Shown here one piece after another: positions 1 through 33,400 of a stretch of DNA of 64,000 nucleotides. Under the pieces are notes generated by a model that was not told where the DNA came from, did no database searches, and saw only the letters and a list, made by a program, of their open reading frames with translations. Both the position numbers and the translations under genes were made by a program. This DNA comes from Balanoglossus misakiensis (lineage: Eukaryota; Animalia; Hemichordata): positions 9,126,894-9,190,893 of the forward strand of contig CM082589.2 of NCBI GenBank assembly GCA_040954595.2. Direction: 5' to 3'. The stretch's first letter is position 1. Each line of letters begins with the position of its first letter.

Positions 1-209
1 TTTGGTAGATTTTCCGGATACCAAGATAAAGAAAACTTGAAGGTCTAATACACAAATATTTCTCAAATAATGTTGTCACATACTAGTGGAGATCCAAAAC
101 ACAAAACATGTAAGCCCTCTTATTTTTAAGGATACTATTTGTAGTAGGCAAAATAAGGAGGTGAAGTATAAGAACGCATTAAGTGTTTCAACATATCATG
201 ATAATGAAA

Positions 210-9200: not shown

Positions 9201-12200
9201 AGACATCTGTTTAATAACCACACACACCAAATCTTGTGACTCGGTTATCGCCGGTTCTTGAGAAGAAGATTTTTGAAATTTTACTAGGGTTTTTCGAAAA
9301 TCCAATATGGCCGCCATAATCTTGGACCAATCACAATGATCTTCGCAAACTTGATAGACATCAGTTAGGTGACCACATACCCCAAACCCCGTGTCTCGGT
9401 TATCACCGGTTCTGGAGAAGAAGATTTTTGAAATTTAAGCCAGATTTCAGAAAAAAAATTGTAGCAAAAAAACTGCAACTTTGTCAGCATAATTTCCAAT
9501 TACAAAAATGACGGGCAGAAGGTAGTCTACCAGCATGCCAAATTTGAAGCCGCTCTGACTTGTAGTTTCTGAGATCTGAGATTTGCATTTTTTCAGAAAA
9601 TCCAATATGGCCGCCATGTCATGTGACTAATTAAGTATTCACAAGTCACTGCACATCTACTCATTAACCTTGACCACTGTAGCAAGTTTGAGAACTGTAC
9701 CTGCAGTGGTGTCTGAGATCTAGAGCGATAAAGAATGGAACCAAGAATAAAGAAAGAAAGAAAGAAAGAAAGACAGAATTAAAGCTGCAAGCAGCATTGT
9801 CCGGGCCCAAGCTCTATTATCTGATCTGATATTAGATATGCACATAATTAATGAGTAGAAAAATAATGCTGTTTTATCCCATGAAATATCAAGGTTATAT
9901 CTATGTTTGGTGCTGTTTAAGTGTTAAGTAGGTCAAAGGTCATCTGAGGTCATCCAAAATTTGGGCAGAAAATTTTGACCCATAGTGGTCCGTGTCCAAC
10001 AAAAACCAGACCTCTAGCCCTTTTGGTTAGCCTAAAATTAGGTATGCACATAATTAATGAGTTAAGCAGGTGTCACAGGTGACCTAAAACGTTGGCTTTT
10101 CATTATGGCCCCATACCTCCAAACGCCAAGGCTGTATATGCTGTGGATGTCGAGATACGCAAAAGTAGGTCAAAGGTCACCCGAGATCACCCAACATTTG
10201 GGCAAAATATTTTGACCCCATACTGGTCCATGTATAACAAAAACAAAACCTCTAGGTCTATTGGTTCATCTGTAATTAGGTATGTGCATATTTAATGAGG
10301 TCAGGAGAGGTCAAAGGGGTCATGAAAAGTAGCAAAATTTTTGGATCACATACAAATCCACATACATCAAAAACCAAACTTATAGCCCTATTGGTTAGCC
10401 TAGAATTAGATATGCAGAAAAATCATGCGTCAAAAGTAGGTCAAAGGTCATTGCCAAAATTACCAAAATATTTATAGCTTATTCTTGGCATATGATGATT
10501 CATATCCATAAAAATAATTTCTGTGCTATCAATTTTTAGGCTAGAAAAGGAATTTTTACTTTTTAATCGTTTTTCACAAAATCCAATATGGCCGCCATAA
10601 TCTTTGACCAATCACATTCCCCTTCGCAAACTTGATAGACATATGTTTAATGACCACACACACCAAATCTTGTGACTCAGTTATCGCCGGTTCTTGAGAA
10701 GAAGATTTTTGAAATTTTACTAGGGTTTTTCGAAAATCCAATATGGCCGCCATAATCTTCGACCAATCACAATGATCTTCGCAAACTTGATAGACCTCAG
10801 CTTGGTGACCACATACCCCAAACCGCGTGACTCGGTTATCGCCGGTTCTGGAGAAGAAGATTTTTGAAATTATGACCAGATTTCAGAAAAACAACTGTAG
10901 CAAAAAAACTGCAACATTGACAGCAAAATATCCAATTACAAAAATGATGGGCAGAAGGTACTCTACCAGCACACCAAATCTGAAGTAAATCTGACTTGTA
11001 GTTTCTGAGATCTGAGATTTGCATTTTTTCAGAAAAACCAATATGGCCGCCATGTCACGTGACTAATTAAGTATTCACAAGTCACTGCACATCTACTCAT
11101 TGACCTTGACCACTGTAGCAAGTTTGAGAACTGTACCTGCAGCGGTGTCTGAGATCTAGAGTGATAAAGAATGGAACCAAGAATAATTAAAGCTGCAAGC
11201 AGCATTGTCGGGCCCAAGCGCTGATCTTGAATTATATATGCACAGTATGAATGAGAAAAACAGAATTTTCTATCGTATGTATTATCTGATGACATAACAA
11301 GGATGTGTGTATTTTTGCTGCTGAAATAGGGTGAAGTAGGTCAAAGGTCACCAGAGGTCACGCAACATTTGGGCAAAAAATTTTGATCCCATACTGGTCC
11401 ATGTCCAACAAAAAACAAAACTCTAGCTCTATTGGTTCGCCTGTAATTAGGTATGTGCATATTTAATGAGGTCAGCAGGTGTCACAGGTGACTCAAAAAT
11501 GTGGCTTTACATTTTGGTCCCATCCTACCAAATGCCATGGCTGTATCTGCTCTGGATGCTGAGATATGCGAAAGTAGGTCAAAGGTCACCAGAGGTCACG
11601 CAACATTTGGGCAAAAATTTTTGATCTCATACAGGTCTGTGTCCAACAAAAACCAAACCTCTAGCTCTATTGGTTCGCCTGTAATTAGCTATGCACATAA
11701 TTAATGAGGTCAGCAGAGGTCAAAGGGGTCATGAAAAGTAGCAAAATATTTTGATCACACACTAATCCACATTCATCAAAAACCAAACGTCTAGCCCTAT
11801 AGGTTAGCCTGGAATTAGATATGCAGAAATACTAACGCGTGATAAGTAGGTCAAAGGTCATGTGAAAAATCGCCAAAAAATTGTAACATATTTTAGTCAC
11901 ATGACGATTGATATCCATAAAAAGAATTTGTATGCTATCAATTTTTAGACTAGAAAAAGGAATTTCAATTTTTCACTGCTTTTTACAAAATCCAATATGG
12001 CCGCCATAATCTTCGACCAATCACAATGCTCTTTGCAAACTTGATAGACATCAGTGTAGTGACCATACTCCCCGAATCTTGCGACTCAGTCATCGCCCGT
12101 TCTGGAGAAGAAGATTTTTGGAGTTTAACTATGGTTTTTCTAAAATCCAAATTGGCCGCCATAATCTTCGACCAATCACAATGATCTTCGCAAACTTGAT

Positions 12201-14205
12201 AGACATCAGTTAGGTGACCACATACCCCAAACCCCGTGTCTCGGTTATCACTGGTTCTGGAGAAGAAGATTTTTGAAATTTAAGCCAGATTTCAGAAAAA
12301 AAATTGTAGCAAAAAAACTGCAACATTGACAGCAAAATTTCCAATTACAAAAATGATGGGTAGAAGGTAGTCTACCTGCATGCCAAATTTGAAGTCGATC
12401 TGACTTGTAGTTTCTGAGATCTGAGATTTGATTTTTTTCAGAAAATCCAATATGGCCGCCAGGTCACGTGACTAATTAATTATTCACAAGTCACTGCACA
12501 TCTACTCATTGACCTTGACCACTGTAGCAAGTTTGAGAAGTGTACCTGCAGTAGTTTCAGAGATCTCGTTGGCCGAAGAAATTGACACAAGAAAAAAGAA
12601 AGAAAGAAAAACCCCAACGAAACCAATAGGGCCCAAGCGCTTGCGTGCGCTTGGGCCCTAAAGAAAGAAAGAAAGAAAGAAAGACAGAAAAACCCCAGCG
12701 AAACCAATACGGGCCCAAGCCTGGCTTGGCTTGGGCCCGTAAAAACCCCAGCGAAACCAATACGGGCCCAAGCCTGGCTTGGCTTGGGCCCGTAATTAAA
12801 GCTGCAAGCAGCATTGTCCGGGCCCAAGCTCTATTATCTGATCTGATATTAGATATGCACATAATTAATGAGTAGAAACATAATGCTCTGTTTTATCCCA
12901 TGAAATATCAAGGTTATATCTATGTTTGGTGTTGATATAGTGTAAAGTAGGTCAAAGGTCTCCCAGGGGTCACCCACAATTTGGGCAGAAAATTTTGACC
13001 CATAGTGGTCCATGTCCAACAAAAACCAGACCTCTAGCCCTTTTGGTTAGCCTGGAATTAGGTATGCACATAAATAATGAGTTAAGCAGGTGTCACAGGT
13101 GACCCAAAACTTTGGCTTTTCATTTTGGCCCCATACCTCCAAACGCCAAGGCTGTATCTGCTGTGGATGTCGAGATATGCAAAAGTAGGTCAAAGGTCAC
13201 CCAAGGTCACCCAACATTTGGGCAAAATATTTTGACCCCATACTGGTTCATGTATAACAAAAACAAAACCTCAAGGTCTATTGGTTCATCATTAATTAGG
13301 TATGTGCATATTTAATGAGGTCAGCAGAGGTCAAAGGGGTCATGAGAAGTAGCAAAATTTTTTGATCACATACAAATCCACATACATCAAAAACCAAACT
13401 TATAGCCCTATTGGTTAGCCTGGAATTAGATATGCAGAAAAATGATGCGTCAAAAGTAGGTCAAAGGTCATTGCCAAAATTACCAAAATATTTATAGCTT
13501 ATTCTTGTCATATGCTGATTCATATCCATAAAAAGAATTTTTGTGCTATCAATTATTAGGCTAGAAAGGGAATTTTTACTTTTTAATCGTTTTTCACAAA
13601 ATCCAATATGGCCGCCATAATCTTCGACCAATCACATTCATCTTCGCAAACTTGATAGACATCTGTTTAATGACCACACACACCAAATCTTGTGACTCGG
13701 TTATCGCCGGTTCTTGAGTAGAAGATTTTTCAAATTTTACTAAGGTTTTTCGTAAATCCAATATGGCCGCCATAATCTTGGACCAATCACTATGATCTTC
13801 GCAAACTTGATAGACATCAGTTAGGTGACCACATACCCCAAACCCCGTGTCTCGGTTATCACCGGTTCTGGAGAAGAAGATTTTTGAAATTTAGGCCAGA
13901 TTTCAGAAAAAAAATTGTAGCAAAAAAACGGCAACTTTGTCAGCATAATTTCCAATTACAAAAATGATGGGCAGAAGGTAGTCTACCAGCATGCCAAATT
14001 TGAAGTCGATCTGACTTGCAGTTTCTGAGATCTGAGATTTGCATTTTTTCAGAAAATCCAAGATGGCCGCCATGTCACGTGACTAATTAAGTATTCACAA
14101 GTCACTGCACATCTACTCATTGACCTTGACCACTGTAGCAAGTTTGAGAACTGTACCTGCAGCGGTGTTTGAGATCTAGAGCGATAAAGAATGGAACCAA
14201 GAATA

Positions 14206-14237
<32 letters not shown>

Positions 14238-14400
14238 CAGAAAAACCCCAGCGAAACCAATACGGGCCCAAGCCTGGCTTGGCTTGGGCCCGTAAAAACC
14301 CCAGCGAAACCAATACGGGCCCAAGCCTGGCTTGGCTTGGGCCCGTAAATATTCCAACAATACCAATAGGGGCACAAGCCCGATAGGCTTGTGCCCCTAA
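210..14400 (-). mobile_element. Tandem array (~9 units) of Helentron-associated non-autonomous elements (HINE/DINE-1/pearl-like architecture), satellite-like
   Basis: Junction motif AATTAAAGCTGC(A/G)AGCAGCATTGTC at 2472, 3891, 5356, 6795, 8337, 9777, 11185, 12794 (period ~1.41-1.61 kb). On the minus strand a full unit reads: GGGCCCAAGC..GCTTGGGCCC hairpin, (TTTC)n microsatellite, internal ~145 bp and ~200 bp subrepeats, subterminal GCTTGGGCCC, small palindrome GCTGC-TT-GCAGC, then TTT. This is the known HINE layout. No coding capacity. Confidence 0.8.
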
Positions 14401-15363
14401 TTAAGAGCTCTTAGATTCTATCTTGGTGTACATAGATTTGCACCTACTGCAGCAGTGGTTGGAGACACTGGCTGGATATCGTCAAAAACTAGGCATTATG
14501 TTAACATGGCTAGACTTTGGAATAGGTTGGTCAAAATGGACGAACAAAGATTGTGTAAGCGTATTTTCATGTGGGATAATTCGTTATGCATAAATAATTG
14601 GAGTTTTGAAATGAATGAAATTTTTAATTCTGTGGACATTGATGTACTAGAAAATGGGGGAATTTGTGACATTGATCACTTAAAAGAAAAGCTCCATGCT
14701 GATACAATTGCTTCTTGGTCAAACAATATTATTAACATTCCAAAACTGCGTATTTATAGACATTTTAAAACGTGCTATGGAAAAGAATCATATCTTTCAT
14801 GTATTCTGGATCGTAGTAAACGTTCTTTCCTAGCTCAACTCAGATTAGGAATTTTGCCATTACGAGTAGAAACAGGCAGATTTAGAGGAGAAGCTTTGAA
14901 TGATAGAATTTGTATATTTTGTTCAGAGAATGCAGTGGAAGACGAATTTCATTTTCTTTTGCACTGTACCTTATATACTGAATATCGAGAGCATTTATTT
15001 GATATTACCAGTAAGCATTTTTCAGAGTTCCAAGATTTGTCAGAAATAGAGAAACTAAAACTGCTCCTCAATGAAATGAGTCGAAGCACATCAAAATTTA
15101 TTGCTAAAGCTTATTGGAAACGGCAGTCTGTACTCTACGAAGTACGCTGACAACCTACATTTTTTTGTCTGCAATTTCTGTGCGAGATTTTTCAGATACC
15201 TGTGTAGTTTTTACTTCATTTTTGTGTGTGTGTATCATGAACAGCAACTCAGATGAATATGTATTTCTTTTTGTTTAAAGTGACTAATAAGCCCGTTGTG
15301 GCTTGGTGTTGAAAAAACACTAGTCACTATAATAAAAATTATCTATCTATTATCTATCTATCT
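14401..15363 (+). mobile_element. 5'-truncated non-LTR retrotransposon (RTE-X-like) 3' end
   Basis: The reading frame from 14401 (RALRFYLGVHRFAPTAAVVGDTGW...) continues into ORF 14455-15150 with LRLGILPLRVETGRF and the C-terminal knuckle CIFC-x5-EDEFHFLLHC typical of LINE ORF2 ends. Followed by a 3' UTR, AATAAA and a (TATC)n tail. Clade assignment is from motif recall. Confidence 0.8.
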
Positions 15364-15367
15364 ACAG

Positions 15368-15741
15368 GATGGAGTCACCCCTTTGAATGATGCAGCAGGG
15401 TTTGGTGGTGAAGGCTGTGTCAGATTGTTATTGGAACACAAAGCTGATGTTACCATACAAACCCAGGTAAATACCAACTTGACTTCTGCAGGTTAATCTA
15501 TCAGTATGGAATGATTTATTCATTTATTTTTTGTTTGTTTGTTTGTTTGTTTGTTTGTTTGTTTTTTGTTTAAGGAAAATTACACATTACGTTTAATTTT
15601 TGTGACATTGTTCTCATGCTCCTCCTTCATTACTTACAGTGGGGAGACACCCCTTTGCACTCTGCAGCAAGGAGGGATGTTGGTGAAGGCCGTGTCAGAT
15701 TGTTATTGGAACACAAAGCTGATGTAACCATACAAAACAAG
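15368..15741 (+). CDS. Two single-ankyrin-repeat exons (15368-15466, 15640-15741)
   Basis: AG/GT-bounded, phase 0-0, 99 and 102 bp: DGVTPLNDAAGFGGEGCVRLLLEHKADVTIQTQ and WGDTPLHSAARRDVGEGRVRLLLEHKADVTIQNK. Both fit the GxTPLHxAA...LLLxxxAD ankyrin consensus. Confidence 0.85.
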
Positions 15742-17099
15742 GTAAATACCAACCTGACTTCTGCAGGTAAATTCTAAAAGTATGAGCTTTCTCAATAGTG
15801 CCATTTCCTCTGTAGTTTTCTTAGTAAATTGTGTCTGGGATACAATGTATATATTTGTCCATTGCCCTTTGAATCAAAACTACTCCCTCCATTGGTCAGG
15901 TGTTGTACAGATAGACTGATGACAGTCCATGCCAATCCTATCACAGAACGTATCAGATAGGGTGATTGTCTGTCGGCCTCCAGCATCTGCCAACTCCTGT
16001 CTGGTACCTAATACAATTCATCATAAGGAGGTGCCATATAATTTGTCACTGTCCTTTGAATCAAAACTACTTCCTCTCGGCCACGTGTTGTCCAGACACA
16101 GGCAAGTATTGATTCATTATGGTGATGTGATTGTCTCTCCTATATCTGAGACATTTGATCTCCACTGTGAGCAATTTGGAGTTATGAGAAAGGGGGATTG
16201 TCTCCAGCATCTGCCAAAAACTGTCTTGTTGAACATAAGGATGTTGTTGTTTATTGCATTGTTTATCATCAATCTTTTGTGGTTTAAATAATAATCTCAT
16301 TATTGGCACAGCGATTTCTGTCTGTCCTTCTGTAGACAGATTTTGTTCCACTCATATCTTGAGAGAAATTGAATCCAATGATATGAAATTTTGTATGTAG
16401 CATTGTTATGATAAGTTCTAGATCTGATAAGATTTTGGTGGGTATGGCTTATTAATAAATTCTCCTTTGCATATTTGTGTGTGGTCGAACGTTGATTCAC
16501 TACATACACATGTAGAATAACATAAACAGTGTCTTGTATCAAACATAATTAATGGAAAAAGGGAAGCGAGAGAGAGAGAGACTTTGTCCCTTTAATATTC
16601 AGGAGTTTACTTTTCTTGTATACGTACACTCTTATAACGATTGTAAATCTTGAGAATGGCTATCAAGTTGACAACCCTCGCACAAGTACATCATGTACAT
16701 AAACAAAAATAGTCTGGTTTGTGGAGCCTCCTCCCTTTTTTACATGAAGTACTTTCACAATATTTTTATGCAATCAGTCCACACTCATGCTCAGTTTTGT
16801 GTCAGAATTATAGTCATAGCAACATTTTGAGTAAGACTTTACCAGAAGAACTTGTTTTCATTGCGGCTCTGATTGGGGCCGTTTTAAACTGGGGTTTGTT
16901 TGGCAACTTTTAGGACCGAAAGACGGATGCGCAGCCATGGTCACATCACACATGTCAAGTTGGGGACTTGCTGGGGGCAGGGGTGCTTGTTGACGGTGCC
17001 GAGAGGAGTCGGCCAGTTTTAGCTTGTACTTTAGGCTGAATAGCACAGTGCCAACCCAATTTACCTTTTATAAACTTTATACAATATAATACATTTTAA

Positions 17100-18550: not shown

Positions 18551-21500
18551 GATGGCGACACCCCTTTGCATTATGCAGTAAGAGGGTGTCGTGGTCAAGG
18601 CCTTGTCAGATTTTTATTGGAACACAAAGCTGATGTGACCATACCAAACAAGGTAAATACCAACATGACTTCTGCAGGTTAATTCTATCAATGCAGATAT
18701 ATTTATTCATTTGTTTGTGTCATTGTCTATTTGTTTGTTTGTTTGTTAGTTTGTTTGTTTGTTTAAGGAAATTTCACATTACATTTCAATTTTGTGACAT
18801 TATTCTCATGCTCTTCCTTCATTACTTACAGACAGGAGACACCCCTTTGCATTATGCGGCAAGGAGGGATGGTGGTGAAGGCCTTGTCAGATTGTTATTG
18901 GAACACAAAGCTGATGTGACCATACAAAACGAGGTAAATACCAACTTGACTTCTGCAGGTTAATTCTATCAATGCGGATATATTTATTCATTTTATTGTG
19001 TGTTTGTCTATTTGTTTGTTTGTTTGTTTCGTTAAGGAAATATCACATTATATTTCAATTTTGTGACATTATTCTCATGCTCCTCCTTCATTACTTACAG
19101 ACAGGAGACACCCCTTTGCATGATGCGGCAAGGAGGGATGGTGGTGAAGGCCTTGTCAGATTGTTATTGGAACACAAAGCTGATGCTAACATACAAAACA
19201 AGGTAAATACCAACCTGACTTCTGCAGGTTTATTCTATCAATGCGGATATATTTATTCATTTATTTGTTTGTTTGTTTGTTTGTTTGTTTGTTTAAGGAA
19301 ATATCACATTATATTTCAATTTTTGTGACATTATTCTCATGCTCCTCCTTCATTACTTACAGGATGGAGACACTCCTTTGCATTATGCAGCAAGGAGGGA
19401 TTGTGGTGAAGGCCTTGTCAGATTGTTATTGGAACACAAAGCTGATGCTAACATACAAAACAAGGTAAATACCAACCTGACTTCAGCAGGTTTATTCTAT
19501 CAATGCGGATATATTTATTCATTTATTTGTTTGTTTGTTTGTTTGTTTGTTTAAGGAAATTTCACATTATATTTCAATTTTTGTGACATTATTCTCATGC
19601 TCCTCCTTCATTACTTACAGGATGGAGACACCCCTTTGCATTATGCAGCAAGGTTTCGTGATGAAGGACATGTCAGATTGTTATTGGAACACAAAGCTGA
19701 TGCTAACATACAAAACAAGGTAAATACCAACCTGACTTCTATAGGTTAATTCTGAAAGTATTGAAATATTTTTTTGTTTTTTTTTGTTTAAGGAAATTTC
19801 ACATTATATTTCAATTTTTGTGACATTATTCTCATGCTCCTCCTTCATTACTTATAGGATGGAGACACTCCTTTGCATTATGCAGCAAGGGATGATGATG
19901 AAGGCCATGTCAGATTGTTATTGGAACACAAAGCTGATGTGACCATACAAAACAAGGTAAATACCAACCTGACTTCTGCAGGTTTATTCTATCAATGCGG
20001 ATATATTTATTCATTTATTTGGTTGTTTGTTTGTTTAAGGAAATTTCACATTATATTTCAATTTTTGTGACATTATTCTCATGCTCTTCCTTCATTACTT
20101 ACAGACAGGAGACACCCCTTTGCATTATGCGGCAAGGAGGGATGGTGGTGAAGGCCTTGTCAGATTGTTATTGGAACACAAAGCTGATGTGACCATACAA
20201 AACGAGGTAAATACCAACTTGACTTCTGCAGGTTAATTCTATCAATGCGGATATATTTATTCATTTTATTGTGTGTTTGTCTATTTGTTTGTTTGTTTGT
20301 TTCGTTAAGGAAATATCACATTATATTTCAATTTTGTGACATTATTCTCATGCTCCTCCTTTATTACTTACAGACAGGAGACACCCCTTTGCATGATGCG
20401 GCAAGGAGGGATGGTGGTGAAGGCCTTGTCAGATTGTTATTGGAACACAAAGCTGATGCTAACATACAAAACAAGGTAAATACCAACCTGACTTCTGCAG
20501 GTTTATTCTATCAATGCGGATATATTTATTCATTTATTTGTTTGTTTGTTTGTTTGTTTGTTTGTTTAAGGAAATTTCACATTATATTTCAATTTTTGTG
20601 ACATTATTCTCATGCTCCTCCTTCATTACTTACAGGATGGAGACACTCCTTTGCATTATGCAGCAAGGAGGGATTGTGGTGAAGGCCTTGTCAGATTGTT
20701 ATTGGAACACAAAGCTGATGCTAACATACAAAACAAGGTAAATACCAACCTGACTTCAGCAGGTTTATTCTATCAATGCGGATATATTTATTCATTTATT
20801 TGTTTGTTTGTTTGTTTGTTTGTTTAAGGAAATTTCACATTAGATTTCAATTTTTGTGACATTATTCTCATGCTCCTCCTTCATTACTTACAGGATGGAG
20901 ACACCCCTTTGCATTATGCAGCAAGGTTTCGTGATGAAGGACGTGTCAGATTGTTATTGGAACACAAAGCTGATGCTAACATACAAAACAAGGTAAATAC
21001 CAACCTGACTTCTATAGGTTAATTCTGAAAGTATTGAAATATTTTTTTGTTTTTTTTGTTTAAGGAAATTTCACATTATATTTCAATTTTTGTGACATTA
21101 TTCTCATGCTCCTCCTTCATTACTTATAGGATGGAGACACTCCTTTGCATTATGCAGCAAGGGATGATGATGAAGGCCATGTCAGATTGTTATTGGAACA
21201 CAAAGCTGATGTGACCATACAAAACAAGGTAAATACCAACCTGACTTCTGCAGGTTTATTCTATCAATGCGGATATATTTATTCATTTATTTGGTTGTTT
21301 GTTTGTTTAAGGAAATTTCACATTATATTTCAATTTTTGTGACATTATTTTCATGCTCCTCCTTCATTACCTACAGGATGGAGACACTCCTTCGCATGAT
21401 GCAGCAAGGAGGGATGGTGTTGACGGCCTTGTCAGATTGTTATTGGAACACAAAGCTGATGCTAACATACAAAACAAGGTAAATACCAACCTGACTTCAG

Positions 21501-21970
21501 CAGGTTTATTCTATCATTGCGGATATATTTATTCATTTATTTGTTTGTTTGTTTGTTTAAGGAAATTTCACATTATATTTCAATTTTTGTGACATTATTC
21601 TCATGCTCCTCCTTCATTACTTACAGGATGGAGACACTCCTTTGCATTATGCAGCAAGGAGGGATGGTGGTGAAGGGCTTGTTAGATTGTTATTGGAACA
21701 CAAAGCTGACGCTAACATACAAAACAAGGTAAATACCAACCTGACTTCTGCAGGTTAATTCTGAAAGTATTGAAAGATTTTTTTGTTTTTGTTTTTGTTT
21801 AAGGAAATTTCACATTATATTTCAATTTTTGTGACATTATTCTCATGCTCCTCCTTCATTACTTACAGGATGGAGACACTCCTTTGCATTATGCAGCAAG
21901 GAGGGTTGGTGGTGAAGGCCTTGTCAGATTGTTATTGGAACACAAAGCTGATGTTAACATACAAAACAAG
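18551..21970 (+). repeat. Array of 14 tandem exon+intron units (~235-280 bp), each exon one ankyrin repeat
   Basis: Exons 18551-18652, 18832-18933, 19101-19202, 19363-19464, 19621-19719, 19858-19956, 20105-20206, 20374-20475, 20636-20737, 20894-20992, 21130-21228, 21377-21478, 21627-21728, 21869-21970. All are 99 or 102 bp and phase 0-0. Introns are near-identical: GTAAATACCAAC...(TTTG)n...CATTACTTACAG. A degenerate further exon starts at 22148. Confidence 0.95.
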
Positions 21971-23784
21971 GTAAATACAAACCTGACTTCTGCAGGTTTA
22001 TTCTATCAATGCCGATATATTTATTCATTTGTTTGTTTGTTTGTTTGTTTGTTTATTTGTTTGTTTGTTTGTTTGTTTGTATAAGAAAACACATTTCATT
22101 TCAATTTTTGTGACATTGTTCTCATGCTCTTCCTTCATGACTTACAGAAAGGAGACCCCTTGGATTTTGCAGCATATGTCATATAATTTTGTCATTGTCC
22201 TTTGAATCAAAACTGCTCACTCTGTCAGGTCAGGTGTTATACAGGCAGGTGTGGAAACGATTTGCATTCCTTTCTTTCTTTCTTTGTTAATCAATCAATT
22301 GTTGTTCTATTCATTGATCATCACCCCCCCTGTATCATGAACATTACAAGGCAATGCATTGAATTCAGCTCTTCCAGCTAGTGGCCGCACTTGCTTGATT
22401 TCCTGCGTGTGTCTCTGGGGATGAAAAGAATGCATATGCGTCTTTTCCTAATTTGCATATTTTGAATGGGTGTTCCAACGTGAGTAACCGTTCATTTGAC
22501 TTCCAGCTCGCATCGAATACACACGTTAGGGACTGTTCAGTTTTTACGGCTGGGGGGGGGGGGGGCAAGTTTGGGTCATCGATTTTCAAAATCAGGCCGA
22601 CCCCCCCTTCACCGAGGACCAAAAAATGATAACCCCCCCCTTTGACAGACCCAAAATATGATGACACCCCCCCCCTCCCGCTGAAAACATTCGCCGTGCT
22701 GATCCTATGTACACTGTATGCAATAAAGGGAATGAGGCTCCTCACACCTCAATTATAAATTTCTTAAAGTAATTGAAGTATATATAATAGTATATCGTTG
22801 CAATAAAAAATCTATGAACAAAATAAAATGACAAGTCAATACAATAGAAAATTTAAGAAAACTTTGTAAAATACGGTGCTCAAAGTTGCATTCGAATGAA
22901 CTCTAAAGCAAATTAACTCAATGTTAGGCAGGACAAATTTTAATTTGGCCACTCCACTCAAAGTAAACATCGGGGGTAGGGTGGGTAGAAGTCTGCCGTG
23001 GTACACTAGACAAACCAGCGAATAAATGATATGTGGCGAAGAGTGGAAGGGGAGGGGTGTGCGAGGGGGTGTCCCCCTCCCACATAAGAAAATTTTGTAA
23101 AATATGTAGCTCAAAGTTGCATTTTTATGAACTCAAAAGCAAATTATCTCAGTGTTTGGGAGGACCTAAAATTTGACTTATAGGTGTGCGTGCCTCAATC
23201 ATCTGATGCATGTATTCATCTATGAAAATTTGTGATCCATTTTCAGAACGGAGTGACTCCTTGTCAAGAGGCAGGAAGGAAGGCTGGGCGGGGTGCAGGC
23301 ACCAATATTGCAAGAGCCTTTGTGGAATATCATTTTGACAATGAGAAAGTATATCAGGCAAGTATTGAGTTAGATTTAAAAGGGCAAGGTTACTCACTTT
23401 TGATAAAACAGTGAAATTGTGTCAGTTACCGACCACCTCTATATAGTGGCCACTTTGTTACAGTCCCTGTGCAGTTAACATGGGCAATTATTGACTTGTA
23501 TATACAGGCCACCTGTCTATTAAGGCCAATTTAGGAAAGTCACTCTGACTGGCCAATTTGGACTGTGAGATTTGGCTGTATTTCAGTTATTTACCAATTG
23601 GCTCTTTCTGTTGTTCTAAAAGATGCTCATTGACCAGTTTTATAAAGCTTACCGGCAACTCACACCTGACACATGGATATTTAAATCCATTTATTTTTTA
23701 CCAAAATTATTTAACAATAGTGTCCATAATATGCATGGTGTGGTATAATTGTCATAATCCTGTACTTTACAGCTAGTTCATTTA

Positions 23785-23927
23785 AGCAATAAAACACCCC
23801 CAGCCATGGTGTACCACTCGATTTTGACCAGTTCACGACAAATACGCAGGAGCGATAGCGAGTGCGTATATGGAGTTGAACTGGTCAAAATCGAGTGGTA
23901 TACCATGGCTGGGGGTGTTTTATTGCT
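23785..23927. repeat. Long hairpin (51-bp arms) of a dispersed non-autonomous element; inverted second copy at 33910-34051
   Basis: AGCAATAAAACACCCCCAGCCATGGTGTACCACTCGATTTTGACCAGTTCA ... TGAACTGGTCAAAATCGAGTGGTATACCATGGCTGGGGGTGTTTTATTGCT (1 mismatch). Confidence 0.85.
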
Positions 23928-24915
23928 ATTATATTATGCCAGTATATTGAAACTTTGCATAAAACATTTTAAAAAGGCATTTTCTTTGACTATGATATAT
24001 GACTATGGTATATGGCTAATATATCACAGTCACGTGTCATGTCTCGACCAATAAAATAGCGTGATTTACACCATCAATATACTGGTATAATATAATCAAT
24101 CATATATGTTCTGTTTTCATCAATGAAAATACAGGCAGTTATAAACTCAGTGTATGACAGAGATGACAAAAGAGACCTGATCAACCATCATAAGGTACGT
24201 CGTAATGTTGATAATAAATGGCTATGAAAACATATCATATCACTAGTGTATTTGAATTTATCTTCTATATTTATAACATGGAAAACATAAAACCAGACTG
24301 TCATATAAATTTTTAACTACATGCTTATTCTATTGTGCCAGCTAGGAATGCATTAAAGGGACATTACCTATAACTTTTGGCTTTATTTCCAGATTTTTTT
24401 CCTTTTGTGTACAAAATGCAATTTCATGTTCTTCTCCAAACTGCATGCTAATATGCCCAGTACTCAACTTGTGTATATTTCCCATCTCTGTAACAACCAT
24501 TGTTATTGTTGACTCATGAATTCTAGTCCGGACTTCAATTCAAATTTTGCAAAATAACAATGTTGAATATACACAAAGAGTACACAACTATCGAGGTATG
24601 CGTCACAAAGAGATGGCAAACTTATGCAAATAGAAGTTATGGAAAAAATATGTTAAATTTGGCAGCTCATGAGGCTTTAACTATGCATTATTTCTATAGT
24701 GTTAATGATAGCTTCCACATCATAAGCACATCATAATAGTGTAGTTAACAATGTAAATTATATTTTTGATACTAGCGTTTTTATCAATATCTTTTCTGAA
24801 GCAAAATGTTATGTGACTTCTGTGAAGGCATGGTGTTTAATTGAAAGGCATGCAAATTGAGTGTAAAAATTCCCAATATATATAACACATAACATATCTG
24901 TTCAAATTCTGACAG

Positions 24916-26714
24916 GTGTTTTCCCGCCAAAAAGAATTCACAGCACTCATGAGACAACCTGGTGTCAAACGTAATACTACAAAGATTGTGTTAGCTGGAT
25001 ACGGTGGGAATGGCAAAACTACACTCAAAGAATCATTGCAGCGGGTGTGTAGAAATCTTTGATTATGAATGCCAATTATTGCTGTTTTTGAGGAGTGAAG
25101 GATTTGTGCAAATATTAAAGTTTTCATGAAGACTACATTTCAGTGGAAATCAGGGTACATATTTTGTTGACCAGCCAATTCTCCAAATATTTTATATTAT
25201 TACAATATGATTGGCATTAATCCAGCTTGCTGATTGGCCCGAGTCGCGGTTTATATCCTCAACGAGAAGACCTGAACCCTGAACAGTGAATAACTAAAAA
25301 ATAACCGAAATGGGACACATAGAACAGAACGCCTCGCCTCGCTCAGTGATTATTTCCCGCCAAATATGCTAAGTTTCACCTGGGAGGTCTTATATCCGGA
25401 ATCAAATACTCTCGCTTGCCGTTTATAAGTTTACAACCTCTAAATTATGAGAAAATCATCATTTATGTTCATATATTACAATGCAGAACTTTGTGCAAGC
25501 AAAATTGACTCGACGGTCAGAAGAGAAAGCACCTTTACCAGGGAACATGCAGTACACACCAACACCCGGCATAGATGTAGCCACATTATCCATACCCAAG
25601 ATTGGCAAGTTCAGTGTGTGGGACTTTGCGGGACAAACAGAATACTATGTCACACATAATATGTTCCTAAGGGTCGAGAATGCAGTGGTTTTATTGGTCT
25701 TCAAAATGGCTGAGGACAAGCAGGATGTAGTTTGGACACCAAGAAAACTTATGCAACAGCAGAGACAAGAGGTGGGTCGTTGTTTTTTTGTTACTGATGA
25801 TAAGTGATATTAATACTTTGAGCAATTATGGAATAAAGGTAAAGATGAAACTCAGAAAGGGCACAGTGCATATATTACAATATTTTTTTTATTACTAAGC
25901 AGTGCATCAGTGAATTAGGTGGTGCAATATTGTGAATGAAATTAAAGTAAAGATGAATGGCACAGTATATATATTTGTGAAACATTTATCTCTTTTTGTT
26001 TTTATCCAGATTTAGGGACTGATTGAATATAATATGATTGATGACTTTATATTCTTCTTCATGTCTTTCTTTAATAGGTGACATCATGGCTTGCATTCCT
26101 TAAGGCAATCATACCACAAGATATGGATGAGGGTGGGAGTAAACCAAAAGTGATATTGATTGGAAGCAAGGCTGATTTGTTGAAAGCTGAACACAAGAAA
26201 GAAGGTATGTTCAGTACATGTTTAGATAAAAGGTGACAAGAGCGAGGGTATTCACACAATTGGGAGCCTGGTGTGGGAGTACACTCAATCTGATTAAAAC
26301 CAGATGTAGTGTTGGGCGCTGTCTTTACCTTTGCTGATTCTTGGCTGTTCTGTTCGAAAGGGACACCCATACTACATCTGAACCTATGCAAAAGGAGATC
26401 TCATTACTATTCAACATTTTACCTATTCAGACAGTGTGATTGATGTAGAATTTCACCGGATGCTTTCAAAAAATACAAAACAGCACCAAAGTGGCCTCTT
26501 CTGTGTACATGTCCATACTTTGTAAATAAAAATCTATCAAGAGATCATTACTTTTTTCTTGATAGCTGAATTGGTGATGAGGGAAATACTCCAGACAGCT
26601 CAGAAGACCTTTGGCAAATACCTGAATATTCTTGATGAGACATTCATACTGAATTGTCACAACTCGCAGCATAATGATATGCACAGATTGCGTGAATGTC
26701 TACGAAGTGCAAAG
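24916..26714 (+). CDS. ROC GTPase domain exons of the Roco gene
   Basis: P-loop KIVLAGYGGNGKTT (24916-25044), switch I TPGID and G3 VWDFAGQTEYY (25487-25771), G4-like LIGSKAD (26078-26204). Splice phases join without stops. Confidence 0.92.
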
Positions 26715-26935
26715 GTATGGTTTTATAGATATTCTGCAATATGTGACTGGATTGAACATGTTAATTCATTAGGGCCATATTTGACAAAGGCATGCTTTAC
26801 ATCACCTTAATACTCTCATGTAATGCATAGAGTCCAAGAAAGCCAACTATCAGATAGTAATAACTGAACTCTTATCAGTGGGAAATAAGTCAAGGTTGTA
26901 TACTTTTGACTTACCGGGTATCAGAACTGTCTAAA

Positions 26936-27633
26936 AGGGCGTTCTCACTGGCACGTTTACACTGGTGCTACATCGGTGTAGATTTGACATCGACGGAAAA
27001 AAACAAGTGAGAACGCTTTACACCGGTGTTGGGCCGGTGTTAATTTGCGACAGCGATGGGTGGTGGGTCAGGGCCAGTGCTGGGCCAGCACTCCGACGCA
27101 AATAATCAGTGAGAACGCAAAGATAAACAAACACCGTTCAAAAGCGCCACCCTGCAGTGACTTTTGGGTATGTTTATTAGGTATAGCCCATTGTCTTTGG
27201 TCAGTTTCCATTGTTAAGTCAATCACACTGGACGCGAGTGGTTTTCAAACCATTCGCAGTTTGCCAGGTCTGCAACACTTCAGTCTGCTACCAACTTTCA
27301 GAAGGTTCTCTCGATCACCAAAAAGCCGAGGCATTTTCCATTTATGGATTAACATTCATTTACTTCTAAACATTATCAAAACTGTCACAAAGTCGTCTAG
27401 AACGTATATGCAGGTATATAAACTGCAACATGTTGCTGTAATGTCCTCGACATCCTCAATTTTGTTAGTTGCCGTGTTGCTAAACATGGCCATTTAGACG
27501 GTGTTTATTTCAAAACAGTGGCCAAAAGTTTAGTGTGTGGACGCAAGGAGATTCTGTGGGCTAATCCCCTGTGTTTGCAGAGAGTAAACACTGGCATAAC
27601 ACCGGTGTCCAAACTTTTAGTGAGAACAAGACT
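26936..27633. mobile_element. PIF/Harbinger-like MITE
   Basis: Left end GGGCGTTCTCACT, right end AGTGAGAAC, internal repeats of AGTGAGAAC and ACCGGTGT. TSD not clean. Confidence 0.4.
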
Positions 27634-28029
27634 TTAAATAATGGGCTGTGTCTGTAAAGGGTGAATATCACTGTTGCCAGTATTGTTCGAGTTGCTTTTC
27701 TGAATGTTCATTTCACCAAACAACAGTATTATGGGGGTCATCGTTAAGACGTTTTTGAAACATCTCAGATGAAATACTGGCGTAAATTATCATGTGTGAA
27801 TGGTTTAAGTGGTCCTGAAACGTCTCAGATTTGAGACGGCTTTGGTCAGACCTGAGCCAGTGTAAGGATTAACACCTCTCCGCAACCCATTGTTTGTGTG
27901 TGTGTACACAAGGCGACTTAAAGGATTAATGCTCTGTGTTTACTATTGGCAAATAGTGTCTATAAAATGTTTTGAATTTTACCCTGTCTGGACATGAACC
28001 TGGTATATGTCGCTGTGTTAATGTTACAG

Positions 28030-30471
28030 AGAGAAGAATACATACCAAAGTTGTGTGCTAAGATACTTGATGGAAGAAGCAAATGGATTGTGAGCAGTTT
28101 CCCGGTCATCAAATGGAAAACATATATAGAAAGAGTGAAAGAGTTGGATCGTTTCATTGATGAAGAGTTTCTAAAGAAAGCTACGAGATACCTTTACTAC
28201 CTTGGGGAGGTAAGAAATCATTGCTGAAGACATTACCCCACTTGATCAGTAGGTTAAGAAATCTATGGAGGATACTGTAAAACAGGTTATTTCGCGAGCA
28301 ATAAATTTTCATGAAATATGCGAGAGCCCCCAAAAATGTGAAAATACAAAAGTCGCATAAAATGTTTTTTTTCTTAGATAACAATGCAGTTAGTGAAATA
28401 CGAGAAAGCCAAAATTAATCCATGCATAACAGTTGCTTCTTTTGATATCGCGAAAATTTCCTGTCGCGAAAAGAACCCGTTTTACAGTATGAAGTCATAC
28501 TACAAGAAAATGTTCTCGCAAAGTTTGGAGAAAGTACAGTACTGCAATTATGTTTATCACAGAACAATTACTGATGAAACCTTTCCAAAGACCAACAGGA
28601 GTTCTGAAAGTTTTCTAGAAATTCTTTAAAACCTATCAATGTCAGGGTTCATCAAAAATAGAGGGCATCATTGACTTGAACATATAAACCATGGGATATG
28701 AAAAGCAAGTACTAATACAGAAACCAGAAATAACGCTGGAAAATTTGTTGACAGGGGGTGTGCTTGTGTCAACCGTTAAGTGCACTCTTTGTTTGATCAT
28801 GATTAGTGTCATACAAATTTAACCCTTAAGAGGGATCTGGGGGTGAAAGGCTTGACAGAGCCTTTTGCTGAGGATCTAGACAGGGATTCAAGACTGAGAA
28901 AAAATAACAGAAAAGGCCCTCTGCTATAAACATGTTTTTGTGGTCCATGTGTGTCACTAGTGTGGGTATAGCCCTGACATTGTTCCTAAATCACCAGTGG
29001 CAATATTGTGGCGTTGATGAGTTTTTTTTCGATCACTATAGCTGAGATGGTTTGGCCAGGCAAGGCTAGACTTGGCCTGGGTTTCGCGGTTTCCCTATGT
29101 ATGATCAGCCATGCACACATCTACATACTGGTATGTGTGTCACTAAGATATATGCACAATTTCATTTGAATAAATGTCTCAAAACATAAGTATTTTTCCC
29201 CATTGTTTATTCACAGATGCTCCAAATCGAGAGTACCCTACCAGATTCAGATGACGTCATTGTTCTTGATCCCCAATGGTTATGTTCTAGAATATTCGGT
29301 CCCATGCTGGCTCCTGAAATATTTGAGCAGTTTGCAAACCGCTTGCCGCGGAAGTCCTTACATATGAGAAGCGAAATTGAGGAAGTTTTCCATGGTCTGG
29401 CAGATATTGATTTGCTCATAAATCTTCTCAAAGAGTTTGACCTTCTCTACGAGGTCATTTCTGAATCCAATACTGTAACTGGGTATGTAATACCTGGGTT
29501 GTTGGACACAGATATGCCTGCAAATCAGTGGAAACAGGATGCTACTAATTTACTATGGCAGACGGTTCCAATGCAGAGATGATGCTGATAGTTTCTCGCC
29601 AGGATTTTTCCCCCGACTTCACGCCCGAATAGAATGCCATTTCCGAAAGATCAACCAACAAACAAGTGGTATATGGAAAAATGGCATCAAAGTGTGTCAC
29701 AATGCAGAAGGCTTGGTGTATATGACAAAAGGTTGGAGAGCTATCCATGTTTGTGTTAGAGCAGAGAAAGAAGAGGAAATCGGCGAATGCTACAAATTAT
29801 TAGAGACAATAACTGATATTGTTTATGAAGTGTTAGAGATCTGCTGTCCTGGTACAAGACTTGACATCCACGTGTTGAGTTCAGATTCTCTTCGAAACCA
29901 TCGCAACCTTGAAGATGTCACATTCTATACATTGAAGCAAATTCGGGAAGCAGAAGAGAGGAATGAGAAGGTGTACAACGAGGAGATGGTGATTTCAGAA
30001 GCAGCTACTGACTTGCTTTGTGCTGGGTATGATACAACCATCCTCCGACACAGTGGATATGAAAGTGATGTCAAGTGGATGCTGAAGGATGCCCTCAAGA
30101 TATTTTCTAATATCATGGATATCATCCGTTTATCCGGCAATGACTACAGGGCTATGGCAGACTTGATGGGGATCCCTCGCATGGAGGTGGATTCATGGCA
30201 ATACAGTGCATTGATTCAATCCCCCACACAACATGCTTTATCTGTTTGGTCCAAGGGCTGTGGAGGACAACAACGTGCAGGCCAACAGCCAACTGCAGAT
30301 AAGAAATTCTGTAAGAGCAATTTTTCCAACCTGGTTAAAATTCTTGAGCAAGAAAGTTGTGATGTCTACGCTGCCAGAGAAGAAATACATGAGATGTTCC
30401 GAAAACTTGGTGTGTCAGCTGATCATCATGATGTTGAAGATGACATGGCTCATCTACATCTAACGTCCTAA
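28030..30471 (+). CDS. COR domain and C-terminal death domain exons (28030-28209; 29217-30471)
   Basis: DAPK-type COR motifs YLYYLGE, IVLDPQWLC, YYGRRFQC, FSPGFFPRL, IWKNGI; death-fold-like GNDYRAMADLMGI...SPTQHALSVW. The frame changes near 29545 between ORFs 29217-29582 and 29539-30471. Confidence 0.85.
28275..28487. mobile_element. Tc1/mariner-type MITE with TA target duplication; further copies at ~60049-60253 and partial ~62560-62604
   Basis: TA|CTGTAAAACAGGTT ... AACCCGTTTTACAG|TA; internal sequence shared with the 60 kb copy. Confidence 0.75.
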
Positions 30472-33400
30472 GATGATGACATCAACATCTCTGAAGCAGA
30501 CCATTGTGACGTCAGTATATCAATTTCTGATTAGTATGGCAAATGATGGCAGTATTTCCATGGAACTTGTTGCAATGTCTGAGAAATTTAACTGAGTAAC
30601 GTAATGTGCGTGTGCAAGGAAAAGGTTCCGTACACACATACTGTTATAAGCCCTGCAGAGAAATCAAAGCCAATACACCAAACCACCCTCCACCATTACT
30701 GTCTTCTCAATAACCAGGCTGTACAACGAGGAGATGGTGATTGCAGAAACAGCTACCAACAGGTGACACAACTAAAGATAAATGAATGGAATCTGTGACA
30801 TAGATCTAGAATGAGATAACAGAAAGTGAATTACCCAAATACAGTACAAGACCATCCTGCAGATACTGACCTATTTGAAGTGTATGTAATGGTTAATTAC
30901 AAATTAAATCACTCTAAGGAACATGATGTCATGTCAGCTTCACAGGATGGAGACACATGCAAATAAAGTGAGTCAATTACAATTATGAGAAAGTGACTAC
31001 TAAGAAATTGTCATGTTGAGTTTACAAACTGCAGCTAATGACATCAATGACCATTATAGCAAAATAAAGTTGATTTTTTTTAAAATTCTAGTGATTTTTG
31101 TGATTTGTTGCAACATTTTTTATTCAAATTATTGTTTTCACCAAAAAGCTGTACAGTAATATTTTTAATCCTGATCATCAATATCTTCATTAGAAACATT
31201 ACTTTTGTTTGTTGACAGATTTAGGAAATTCACTCATGTTCACAATGATTTTGTGTAATGTTCTGGACTTCGGTTTTGATGTGTACTATTTCCCAAAAGC
31301 AAATGACTACCCAAGAATATGCAATTTAAGAGAGGTTGTCATACACTTCTTGCTTTCAATTACATTGAACACACTCTCAACATCTTTTTTCTATGTACAC
31401 AAGTTGTCACTTCAAGATCATTCATATTAGGATTGAGAAACTATTTTCTTAATTTTGAATTATAAACTAATACAGACATCACCATTCACATTTTGCAGAC
31501 ATGCTATTTAGGTGGTCGACATATCTTTATATTTTTAGTATTAAAATGTGGGAAGAGTCACTTTGAAAACAGAAAAAAATTTGCTTTCTCAAAAATAAAA
31601 ATACTTCAAATTTTCTCAATACACATTGAATGGTGGCCATCTTGATTTTAAAATTTGAATCAGTTTCGCTTTATCATTCAAAATTATGCCTGTTTAAAGG
31701 ATATAAGAGTAAAAATCTCGCCAAAATGAATAAACGGTAGAGACCGATTATTCATTTTGACGAGTGTTTTACTCTCGTGTCTACAAGTGAGATGGAAGTT
31801 GTGGGTGGTCGAACGTTGATTCACTATATATCCACAGTCTTGTATCAAACATAATTAACAGAAAAATGGCAGCGAGAGAGAGATTTTGTCCCTTTAAATG
31901 TTATTCCATGTATGACCTCATCTTGGATATGAATATTATCTGTTACCAATCCTTGCAATGTAGTTTCCATAACTGCAGTTTTACAGCTCTTTTTCATGAG
32001 GACTTGAGAAATGAATTATTTACTGCTTCTTCACAGCCAGAAAGATTCTTTATAGGTATTTAAAATCCTTGATGTGTTCAAAATAAATCTGTTACTTTTG
32101 CAATCTTTTGTGTATATGTGTGTCCATTGTTAGCATCCGCCCACCCCCCCCCCCCCCACCCCCCGAGTTGAACACGGGCTGCCAAATTATTGCAATACAA
32201 GACATGAACTATTCCTACTTGCTTCTCATGTTTGGTTTTAATGTGCACCTTCAAAATCAGTCATATTCTCCTCAATACAACTTTAGATTATTCTTGCTTA
32301 AAACAAAGAATACAGATTAATTATTCATCGTAAAAATTTGAATGACAAAAAATGTCTCAAATTTGAAATTCAAAATGGCGCTATAACTCCATGGTGAACA
32401 TTGTTTATTTTTTTATGAAACCAAGGTGATGAAAATCATTTTTTTCAAATAGACTTCATATACACTTTAATACAAAAACATGGAAGAGATTGGAGGACTG
32501 ATTTTTGTGAAAATAACCAACTTAATGAATTTTTTTTCACTCAACTACTGGAAAGTAAGCTGGGCTTTGATTGGTTGCTGACTGAGACAAATGTGTAGAT
32601 AACCAATCACAACACAGCTACCTTCATGATTGAGCATGTAGAAAGTGTAGTCTCCCTCAGAAATCGCCCAAAACATCGCTATTAATGCGAGCAGAGGATA
32701 GCATGTATGAACTTTGACATGAAATTGGTAGTTACCCTGGTTACGACGTTGATTTGTGACTGGTACACTTTCCACCCTTTGAAGAAAGAAAAAAAGAAAC
32801 AAGTTCTTTTCTGTGCAACACTTCAGAGTCACAAGTGATTTTCATCAAGAGAAACTTCTATCAGGCAAATTTTACTTGAAATGTTTGAAGAATTGGCACT
32901 GGGTTGATTTTATTTTGGAGTGAGTTAAGTACTCAGGGAGTCATCATTTGGTATCCCCAGGGGGGTCTAGATGCTGTTTTCTGGGGGGAGAGACAATTCA
33001 TTCCAGTGGAATGTGACACTTAGGAAATAAATAGACCATAGCACCAAAAAGAACAATTTCAGAATAAAATCCCTCATAACAGATCAGCTCACAATCAGAA
33101 TGCAGATAAGTATATGAGATAAGAGAAATTCCAACAAATGTCTTCATATTTGACTTCCAGTCCAACTTGAGTGGAAATGGCATAAACTTCAATGATTTTG
33201 TGCCCTTGAGCAAGGCACTTTTTATTCCCATTGATCTGGGGGGACTGACTTTGTATAGATGATTGTTCTAGTCATCCTATCCTAGGTAGACAACATTTCT
33301 GTGTTTGATATGGATGAATTAAATAAATAAAAAACTGCATCGTTAGCCATTTTTGAATGCTGCTAAATAATAAATATATCCAGAATTTGATAAAACAATT

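Follow-up and report, generated by a model that had tools for sequence, protein, structure and literature searches.

We found that the look-alike ankyrin exons in a 64,000-nucleotide stretch of Balanoglossus misakiensis DNA (hereafter the window) precede a Roc-COR region, and that the gene they belong to is, by its predicted domains, a ROCO gene: its Roc sequence passes the Pfam cut-off and COR comes directly after Roc. Our preferred reading, to which we give a probability of about 0.5, is that the array forms the N-terminal part of an ankyrin-Roc-COR gene whose units duplicate and recombine, with helix 2 of the repeat held fixed and the loop between helices 1 and 2, together with positions 3 and 10, kept diverse by selection. 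Between introns that are nearly identical, unequal crossing-over and conversion would alter the number and order of repeats while keeping the frame, and selection would favour new loop residues on the predicted ligand-sensing surface. The ligand bound by the ankyrin solenoid might then be a variable one, non-self or damage-derived, and its binding might switch the Roc-COR GTPase and a predicted death-like domain. We regard the gene context of the array as a more valuable result than the claim about its variation.

The array consists of 16 stop-free exons of 99 or 102 nt, each encoding one ankyrin repeat, with AG/GT ends and phase 0-0 in all 16 (Table 1). An earlier note on this DNA had counted 16 ankyrin exons, and we recovered all of them, 14 inside 18551–21970 and two upstream; it had missed the host ROCO gene and the 1273-bp duplication of five units. 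The two array exons that we scanned matched Pfam Ank (E 4e-10 and 6e-10). Within the main array, ten exons encode 34 residues and four encode 33, and the introns, 137–179 nt long, carry a TTTG microsatellite. Pairs of exons are on average 83% identical in amino acids within the 14 and 81% within the 16. Exons 4–8 and their introns recur as exons 9–13 with eight differences in 1273 columns (99.4% alike), the sole exonic one being H/R at position 19; the tandem duplication is recent. Because of this recurrence the 16 exons are not independent, and 12 of them are distinct.

Table 1. Predicted exons and neighbouring features, in window coordinates.
Feature	Position	Strand	Remarks
Retrotransposon-like fragment	14401..15360	+	249-aa ORF
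Ankyrin exon 1	15368..15466	+	33 aa
Ankyrin exon 2	15640..15741	+	34 aa
Main array, ankyrin exons 3–16	18551..21970	+	phase 0-0
Tandem duplication of five exon-intron units	18832..21376	+	18832–20104 and 20105–21376
Relic 17th exon	22149..22190	+	standard acceptor, degenerate start of the repeat, premature stop; sequence inspected
Capping-repeat-like exon	23247..23348	+	weak tblastn to relatives, E 0.02–0.12; AG/GT, in frame
Linker exon	24135..24194	+	tblastn E about 0.01; AG/GT
Roc P-loop exon	24916..25044	+	about 62% identity to relatives; AG/GT
Roc exon with G3 motif	25487..25771	+	Pfam Roc E 2e-8, 34.8 bits, cut-off 27
Roc exon	26078..26204	+	tblastn with relatives; AG/GT
Roc/COR junction exon	26566..26714	+	tblastn with relatives; AG/GT
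COR exon	28030..28209	+	tblastn with relatives; AG/GT
Last exon: COR-A, COR-B, death-like tail	29217..30471	+	two frames

A short element 3' of the relic 17th exon (22182–22244) recurs behind exon 2, at 15848–15910 and, in a second copy spotted by eye, at about 16036–16100; its presence in both places suggests that the two upstream exons were copied from the array end in an older duplication. Compared with the standard unit, the 55 bases upstream of exon 2 differ at 8 positions and those upstream of exon 1 at 34. Here the simple-repeat tail of a retrotransposon-like fragment, which we take from its look to be a LINE, adjoins the exon 1 acceptor and takes the place of the usual upstream intron; the fragment's ORF had no Pfam match. 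One contig of run X1 with exon-1-type alleles continues into 55 nt of standard upstream intron, so the retroelement appears private to the window copy. Directly upstream of the gene, 1058–14400 holds about nine tandem copies of a 1.4–1.5-kb unit, 85–99% alike, that contains 155-bp and 53-bp sub-repeats. Elsewhere in the window, an intronless 657-aa ORF with a SAP-domain match (E 4e-5) lies on the minus strand at 46355–48328 beside another minus-strand ORF at 48660–49193, the pair probably being a DNA transposon or virus-like element.

The units of the array have exchanged sequence. The four-gamete test fails in 84 of 378 informative site pairs, with at least four recombination events across units 4–15, and by this measure the units are mosaics. 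The introns include two old types that differ strongly about 30–57 nt behind the donor. The earlier note had described a framework, introns and silent sites that barely change. For the ten-codon framework this is accurate (three changes among 14 exons, one of them non-synonymous), but the introns carry 30 changes on 120 aligned sites (0.25, with microsatellite and splice dinucleotides excluded) and silent sites of the exons change more often (10 on 22.0 sites, 0.45) than non-synonymous ones (23 on 80.0, 0.29).

To place the amino-acid changes, we numbered residues by the standard 33-residue ankyrin consensus (as given in the accessible part of PMC4308713), in which each exon begins at position 3. 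An AlphaFold model of a stretch of a Ptychodera flava relative, built without an alignment (mean pLDDT 71) and used for secondary structure and the ankyrin fold, puts helix 1 at 7–13, the turn at 14–16 and helix 2 at 17–25. With these borders, the hypervariable 'segment after AAR' of the earlier note is the inter-helix turn, and its 'residue after EG' lies in helix 2, at position 19. Every variant residue listed there is present in the exons; the note had omitted a V/A-T/N pair at positions 30–31, which varies too.

Variation peaks at 14–19, the turn between the helices and the start of helix 2. Among 30 extra residues in the 16 exons (inserted codon excluded), 12 fall at the DARPin-type positions 2, 3, 5, 10, 13, 14 and 33, 11 at 15–19, one at 20–29 and six elsewhere, the V/A-T/N pair at 30–31 among them. 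Judged by the general ankyrin fold, positions 15–19 would rim the concave face rather than form its centre. Contrary to what had been proposed, variation is not confined to the binding face; the proposed analogy to DARPins is apt for positions 3, 10 and 14, but the hot spot at 14–19 is mostly fixed framework in designed libraries. In the 14 exons, the best four-codon window holds 10 of 23 amino-acid changes (scan p=0.003) and the best seven-codon window 13 of 23 (p=0.003), and an overall dispersion test of these changes was not significant (p=0.17). The loop has nine haplotypes among 14 units, where other segments have three to seven, and its 24 nt require no fewer than 12 events with any gap counted once.

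Selection was measured by counting the distinct alleles at each site, a tally that the duplicated units leave unchanged. In the 14 exons, loop positions 13–19 carry 13 non-synonymous alleles on 18.4 sites versus 40 on 142 neutral sites (p=0.006), and positions 20–29 carry one on 24.0 sites (p=0.013). A further test of 20–29 gave one seen versus 5.5–11.3 expected (p 0.002–0.03), supporting purifying selection on what is predicted to be helix 2. Corrected for composition and set against introns, either alone or pooled with silent sites, the loop ratio is 2.1–2.2 for 13–19 and 2.8–2.9 for 13a–17, values that splicing constraint on the introns may inflate. With exon silent sites as the only reference the ratio is 1.05–1.44 (p 0.35–0.58). 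Substitution density in the loop is two- to threefold that of introns but about equal to that of exon silent sites. A neutral null that included gene conversion (seven settings) gave p 0.018–0.033 for the fixed window 13–19, 0.004–0.010 for 13a–17 and 0.10–0.23 for the best window anywhere. No single codon passed Bonferroni correction in the 14 exons. The positions randomised in the original DARPin set (2, 3, 5, 13, 14 and 33), taken a priori, carry 8 on 17.7 sites with the inserted codon included (p=0.16; composition-corrected p 0.07–0.08).

Site models, run as a custom implementation of M1a versus M2a, were not significant for the 14 exons (p=0.33) but gave p=0.024 for the 16, with omega 2.8 and sites 3, 10, 14, 15, 16, 19, 30 and 31. 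A faster pipeline returned statistics of 6.99 (16 exons) and 2.20. In simulations with no selection, kept only if they held 32–60 extra alleles, values of at least 7.0 arose in 1 of 39 runs with no conversion (39 of 76 retained), 3 of 72 with moderate conversion (72 of 130) and 7 of 31 with heavy conversion (31 of 44). The site-model result appears marginal once gene conversion is simulated. We consider diversifying selection on the loop and on positions 3 and 10 an evenly balanced proposition on these sequence comparisons. As for the earlier picture of diversifying selection acting against concerted evolution, exchange between units is borne out and selection is suggestive only.

A serious competitor, somewhat short of an even chance, is relaxed constraint combined with local mutation, in which the loop would tolerate change and vary neutrally, purifying selection would hold the helices and conversion would hold the rest. 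The loop has slippage-prone, G-rich triplets next to the 3-bp indel, and CpG codons. Several alleles can be explained by mechanisms that the sequences themselves suggest. Triplet slippage would account for the extra codon, which duplicates the one beside it, and for the D/G changes, which copy triplets; CpG decay for the R/H/C alleles at position 19, all CpG transitions; and a four-base repeat at the acceptor for the T allele at position 3, which repeats the final four bases of the intron. The loop ratio near 1 against silent sites and the best-window result fit this account, as does a 24-nt intron window with 12 extra alleles, equal to the 12 of the loop window (units 4–16). In the introns, transitions at G/C occur roughly five times as often as other changes, and relaxed selection among young repeats is described as general (in the accessible part of PMC5120217). 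Slippage, however, does not give many of the loop alleles (F, C, V, R and Q), which need point changes. At codons 14, 15, 16 and 19, all 12 extra alleles fall at codon positions 1–2 and none at position 3, and the loop excess persists after composition correction.

In runs X1 and X2, codons 5, 10, 13a and 17 show additional alleles and codons 6, 15 and 16 silent ones, with none listed at 20–29; the two runs are not independent evidence, as they come from one sample, possibly the source animal. We kept the X1–X3 variant table out of the rates because a cut-off of 1% makes it roughly fivefold more permissive in the loop and because 7 of 17 common window variants are absent from it.

Downstream of the array lie eight exons, for a cap-like repeat and a linker followed by Roc, COR and a death-like tail. 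The Roc sequence contains P-loop and G3 motifs, the P-loop giving a weak cross-match to NB-ARC (E 0.058). In the last exon, separate pieces match COR-A (E 9e-4) and COR-B (E 5e-6), both under the Pfam cut-off, with identity of 40–60% to relatives that bear COR, and the tail matches Death at E 0.072 and 13.7 bits against a cut-off of 22.6; the capping-repeat-like exon had no Pfam match. Searches for 5' exons in the window by tblastn with four relatives and with a profile of six N-termini found none, and there was no kinase domain among the window ORFs examined. Just past the stop, at 30720–30756, 37 bp of the last coding exon (29972–30008) occur a second time.

The window copy is probably a damaged allele or gene copy, and any selection would therefore have acted on intact relatives. 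Its last exon has a frameshift near 29547, giving a first stop at residue 466 of the 762 encoded by the downstream exons. At this point the main contigs of X1 and X2 are five bases longer and keep the frame whole; over 23200–30600 they share alleles about 1% off the window, a distance so small that the damage is recent. Could the exon pattern itself be largely drift after inactivation, laid over older variation? We think this unlikely. The frameshift, the retroelement at the exon 1 acceptor, the missing 5' exons, the altered TPLH residues of exons 1 and 14 and an overall exon ratio of 1.05–1.13 versus introns are what such drift would leave, but all 16 exons have intact splice sites, no stop or frameshift and a 3-bp indel as their only length change. 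Positions 20–29 show their deficit of changes, and X1 and X2 share the TPLH variants seen in exons 1 and 14.

That the five-unit duplicate is a product of assembly, which would make the repeat count and some variants unreliable, is very improbable: the blocks are nearly identical, no listed contig covers one whole exon-intron unit and 7 of 17 common window variants are unlisted for X1–X3 (either the sample arrays differ or the variant table is incomplete), but the blocks do differ at eight columns, the other 10 of 17 variants are listed, and tests that count distinct alleles are unaffected by the duplicate.

The X1 contigs that cover the Roc-COR region have depths of 842–1210, versus mostly 23–56 for contigs from other loci. 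This hints at 20–40 gene copies or at uneven coverage, depth not being a copy number; a reading of the contigs as 'hundreds of units' was withdrawn pending depth calibration. Run X3 is recorded as 'DNA?' and is not on record as RNA, yet in two of its contigs, from related copies, one ankyrin exon runs straight into the next at these boundaries, which supports the exon model for those copies. X3 gave no cover on the Roc exons and only sparse matches, at 93–96%, to the last exon. A loose end in X3 (window 21800–22020) implies a repeat loop three residues longer than in the 33-residue type.

Three word-index searches, which reach only close relatives, returned 20 relatives, all from hemichordates: 18 from P. 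flava and one each from Saccoglossus and Glandiceps. Thirteen matched at 40–60% identity (12 P. flava, one Saccoglossus), and the Glandiceps sequence came from a further search. Many of the 20 contain ankyrin arrays, their database names are mostly 'DAPK1-like', and none has a kinase domain in its Pfam list. As predicted proteins, they form an expanded hemichordate ankyrin-Roc-COR family with many paralogues. We compared per-position variability with repeats of four relatives (16 of P0005, 4 of P0003, 3 of P0009 with irregular ones dropped, and 13 of P0014), those of the Glandiceps protein P0014 being split into its two alternating types. The window profile correlates with three of the five resulting sets (rho 0.46–0.58, p<0.01) and not with the other two; shared tolerance alone would also predict such a correlation. 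Each of the two P0014 types varies mainly at 5, 10, 13 and 14, and 22 of 39 extra residues in this array fall at DARPin-type positions, making it, from its sequence, a cleaner DARPin-like case than the window gene.

A broader reading, which we hold as a rather doubtful extension, is that acorn worms possess an amplified family of intracellular ankyrin-ROCO sensors with a CDR-like inter-helix loop, an animal counterpart to brown-algal ROCO receptors, their exon-sized modules turning over quickly between gene copies; the contig depths would fit 20–40 such copies in one animal. It would have, no less tentatively, a loop varying in both sequence and length, with repeats of 33, 34 and apparently 36 residues (the last from one X3 contig). 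Equally speculative is its further part, that this loop is a diversified surface not mainly used by DARPin libraries or fungal NLRs. If selection is confirmed, this would be a candidate family of germline-diversified intracellular sensors in hemichordates, with an input domain of ROCO proteins open to testing and, for protein engineering, a natural case of a varied inter-helix turn. If it is not confirmed, the array would be a clean case of concerted evolution and slippage mimicking a hypervariable site.

Several known systems invite comparison with this gene. DAPK1, with ankyrin, Roc, COR and death domains, has a similar domain order, but a kinase is absent from the window ORFs examined and from the relatives' Pfam lists, and the hemichordate genes are a multi-copy family with variable repeat number; on present evidence the window gene is not a DAPK1 orthologue. 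Expansions of ROCO genes in animals are described for Trichoplax (PMC4104024) and lineage-specific expansions of death-domain immune genes for hemichordates (PMC8195603), in the accessible text of each, with further background in parts of PMC8683736 and PMC8229355. In the literature searched, most subscription papers being outside its scope, we found no report of an ankyrin-ROCO exon array in an animal.

Designed ankyrin libraries share with the window exons a fixed framework and variable positions 3, 10 and 14. The ANK-N5C library (PMC4308713) randomises 2, 3, 5, 10, 13 and 33; in the window 5, 13 and 33 are nearly fixed, whereas 15–19, fixed in the ANK-N5C consensus, vary.

Among natural systems, fungal NLRs with highly conserved ANK repeats, such as Podospora Pa_3_8560 (Dyrka et al., 2014; accessible part of PMC4986451), share with the window near-identical ankyrin repeats, exchange between repeats, few variable positions and a nucleotide-binding switch. 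Their switch is NACHT or NB-ARC instead of Roc-COR, and the window repeats are N-terminal and split by introns homogenised along with them. The fungal cut-off was 85% internal identity over 100 aa, compared with a mean identity of 83% in the window, although the metrics differ. With one exception, the selected sites reported in that text lie in the inner helix and beta-hairpin.

The brown-algal LRR-ROCO genes, in which 72-nt, phase-2 repeat exons are shuffled (Zambounis et al., 2012, PMC3341825; Teng et al., 2024, PMC11378527; both in their accessible parts), have in common with the window gene a Roc-COR core preceded by one repeat per exon, inactivated repeat exons, pseudogenes, an expanded family and variable residues proposed as a ligand face. 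The window gene differs in being from an animal, in having ankyrin rather than LRR repeats on 99/102-nt phase-0 exons and a death-like tail, and in its hot spot, which sits in the inter-helix turn and varies in length. Positive selection at the ligand face is reported as significant in the algal genes and is marginal in the window array; alternative splicing of repeat exons is established there, and the only sequences bearing on it here are short contigs with exon-to-exon joins. By analogy, the window array would work like the brown-algal ROCO and fungal NLR arrays while belonging to neither, as its repeat type differs from the one and its switch from the other, and it is likely to be a parallel of these repeat arrays in animals.
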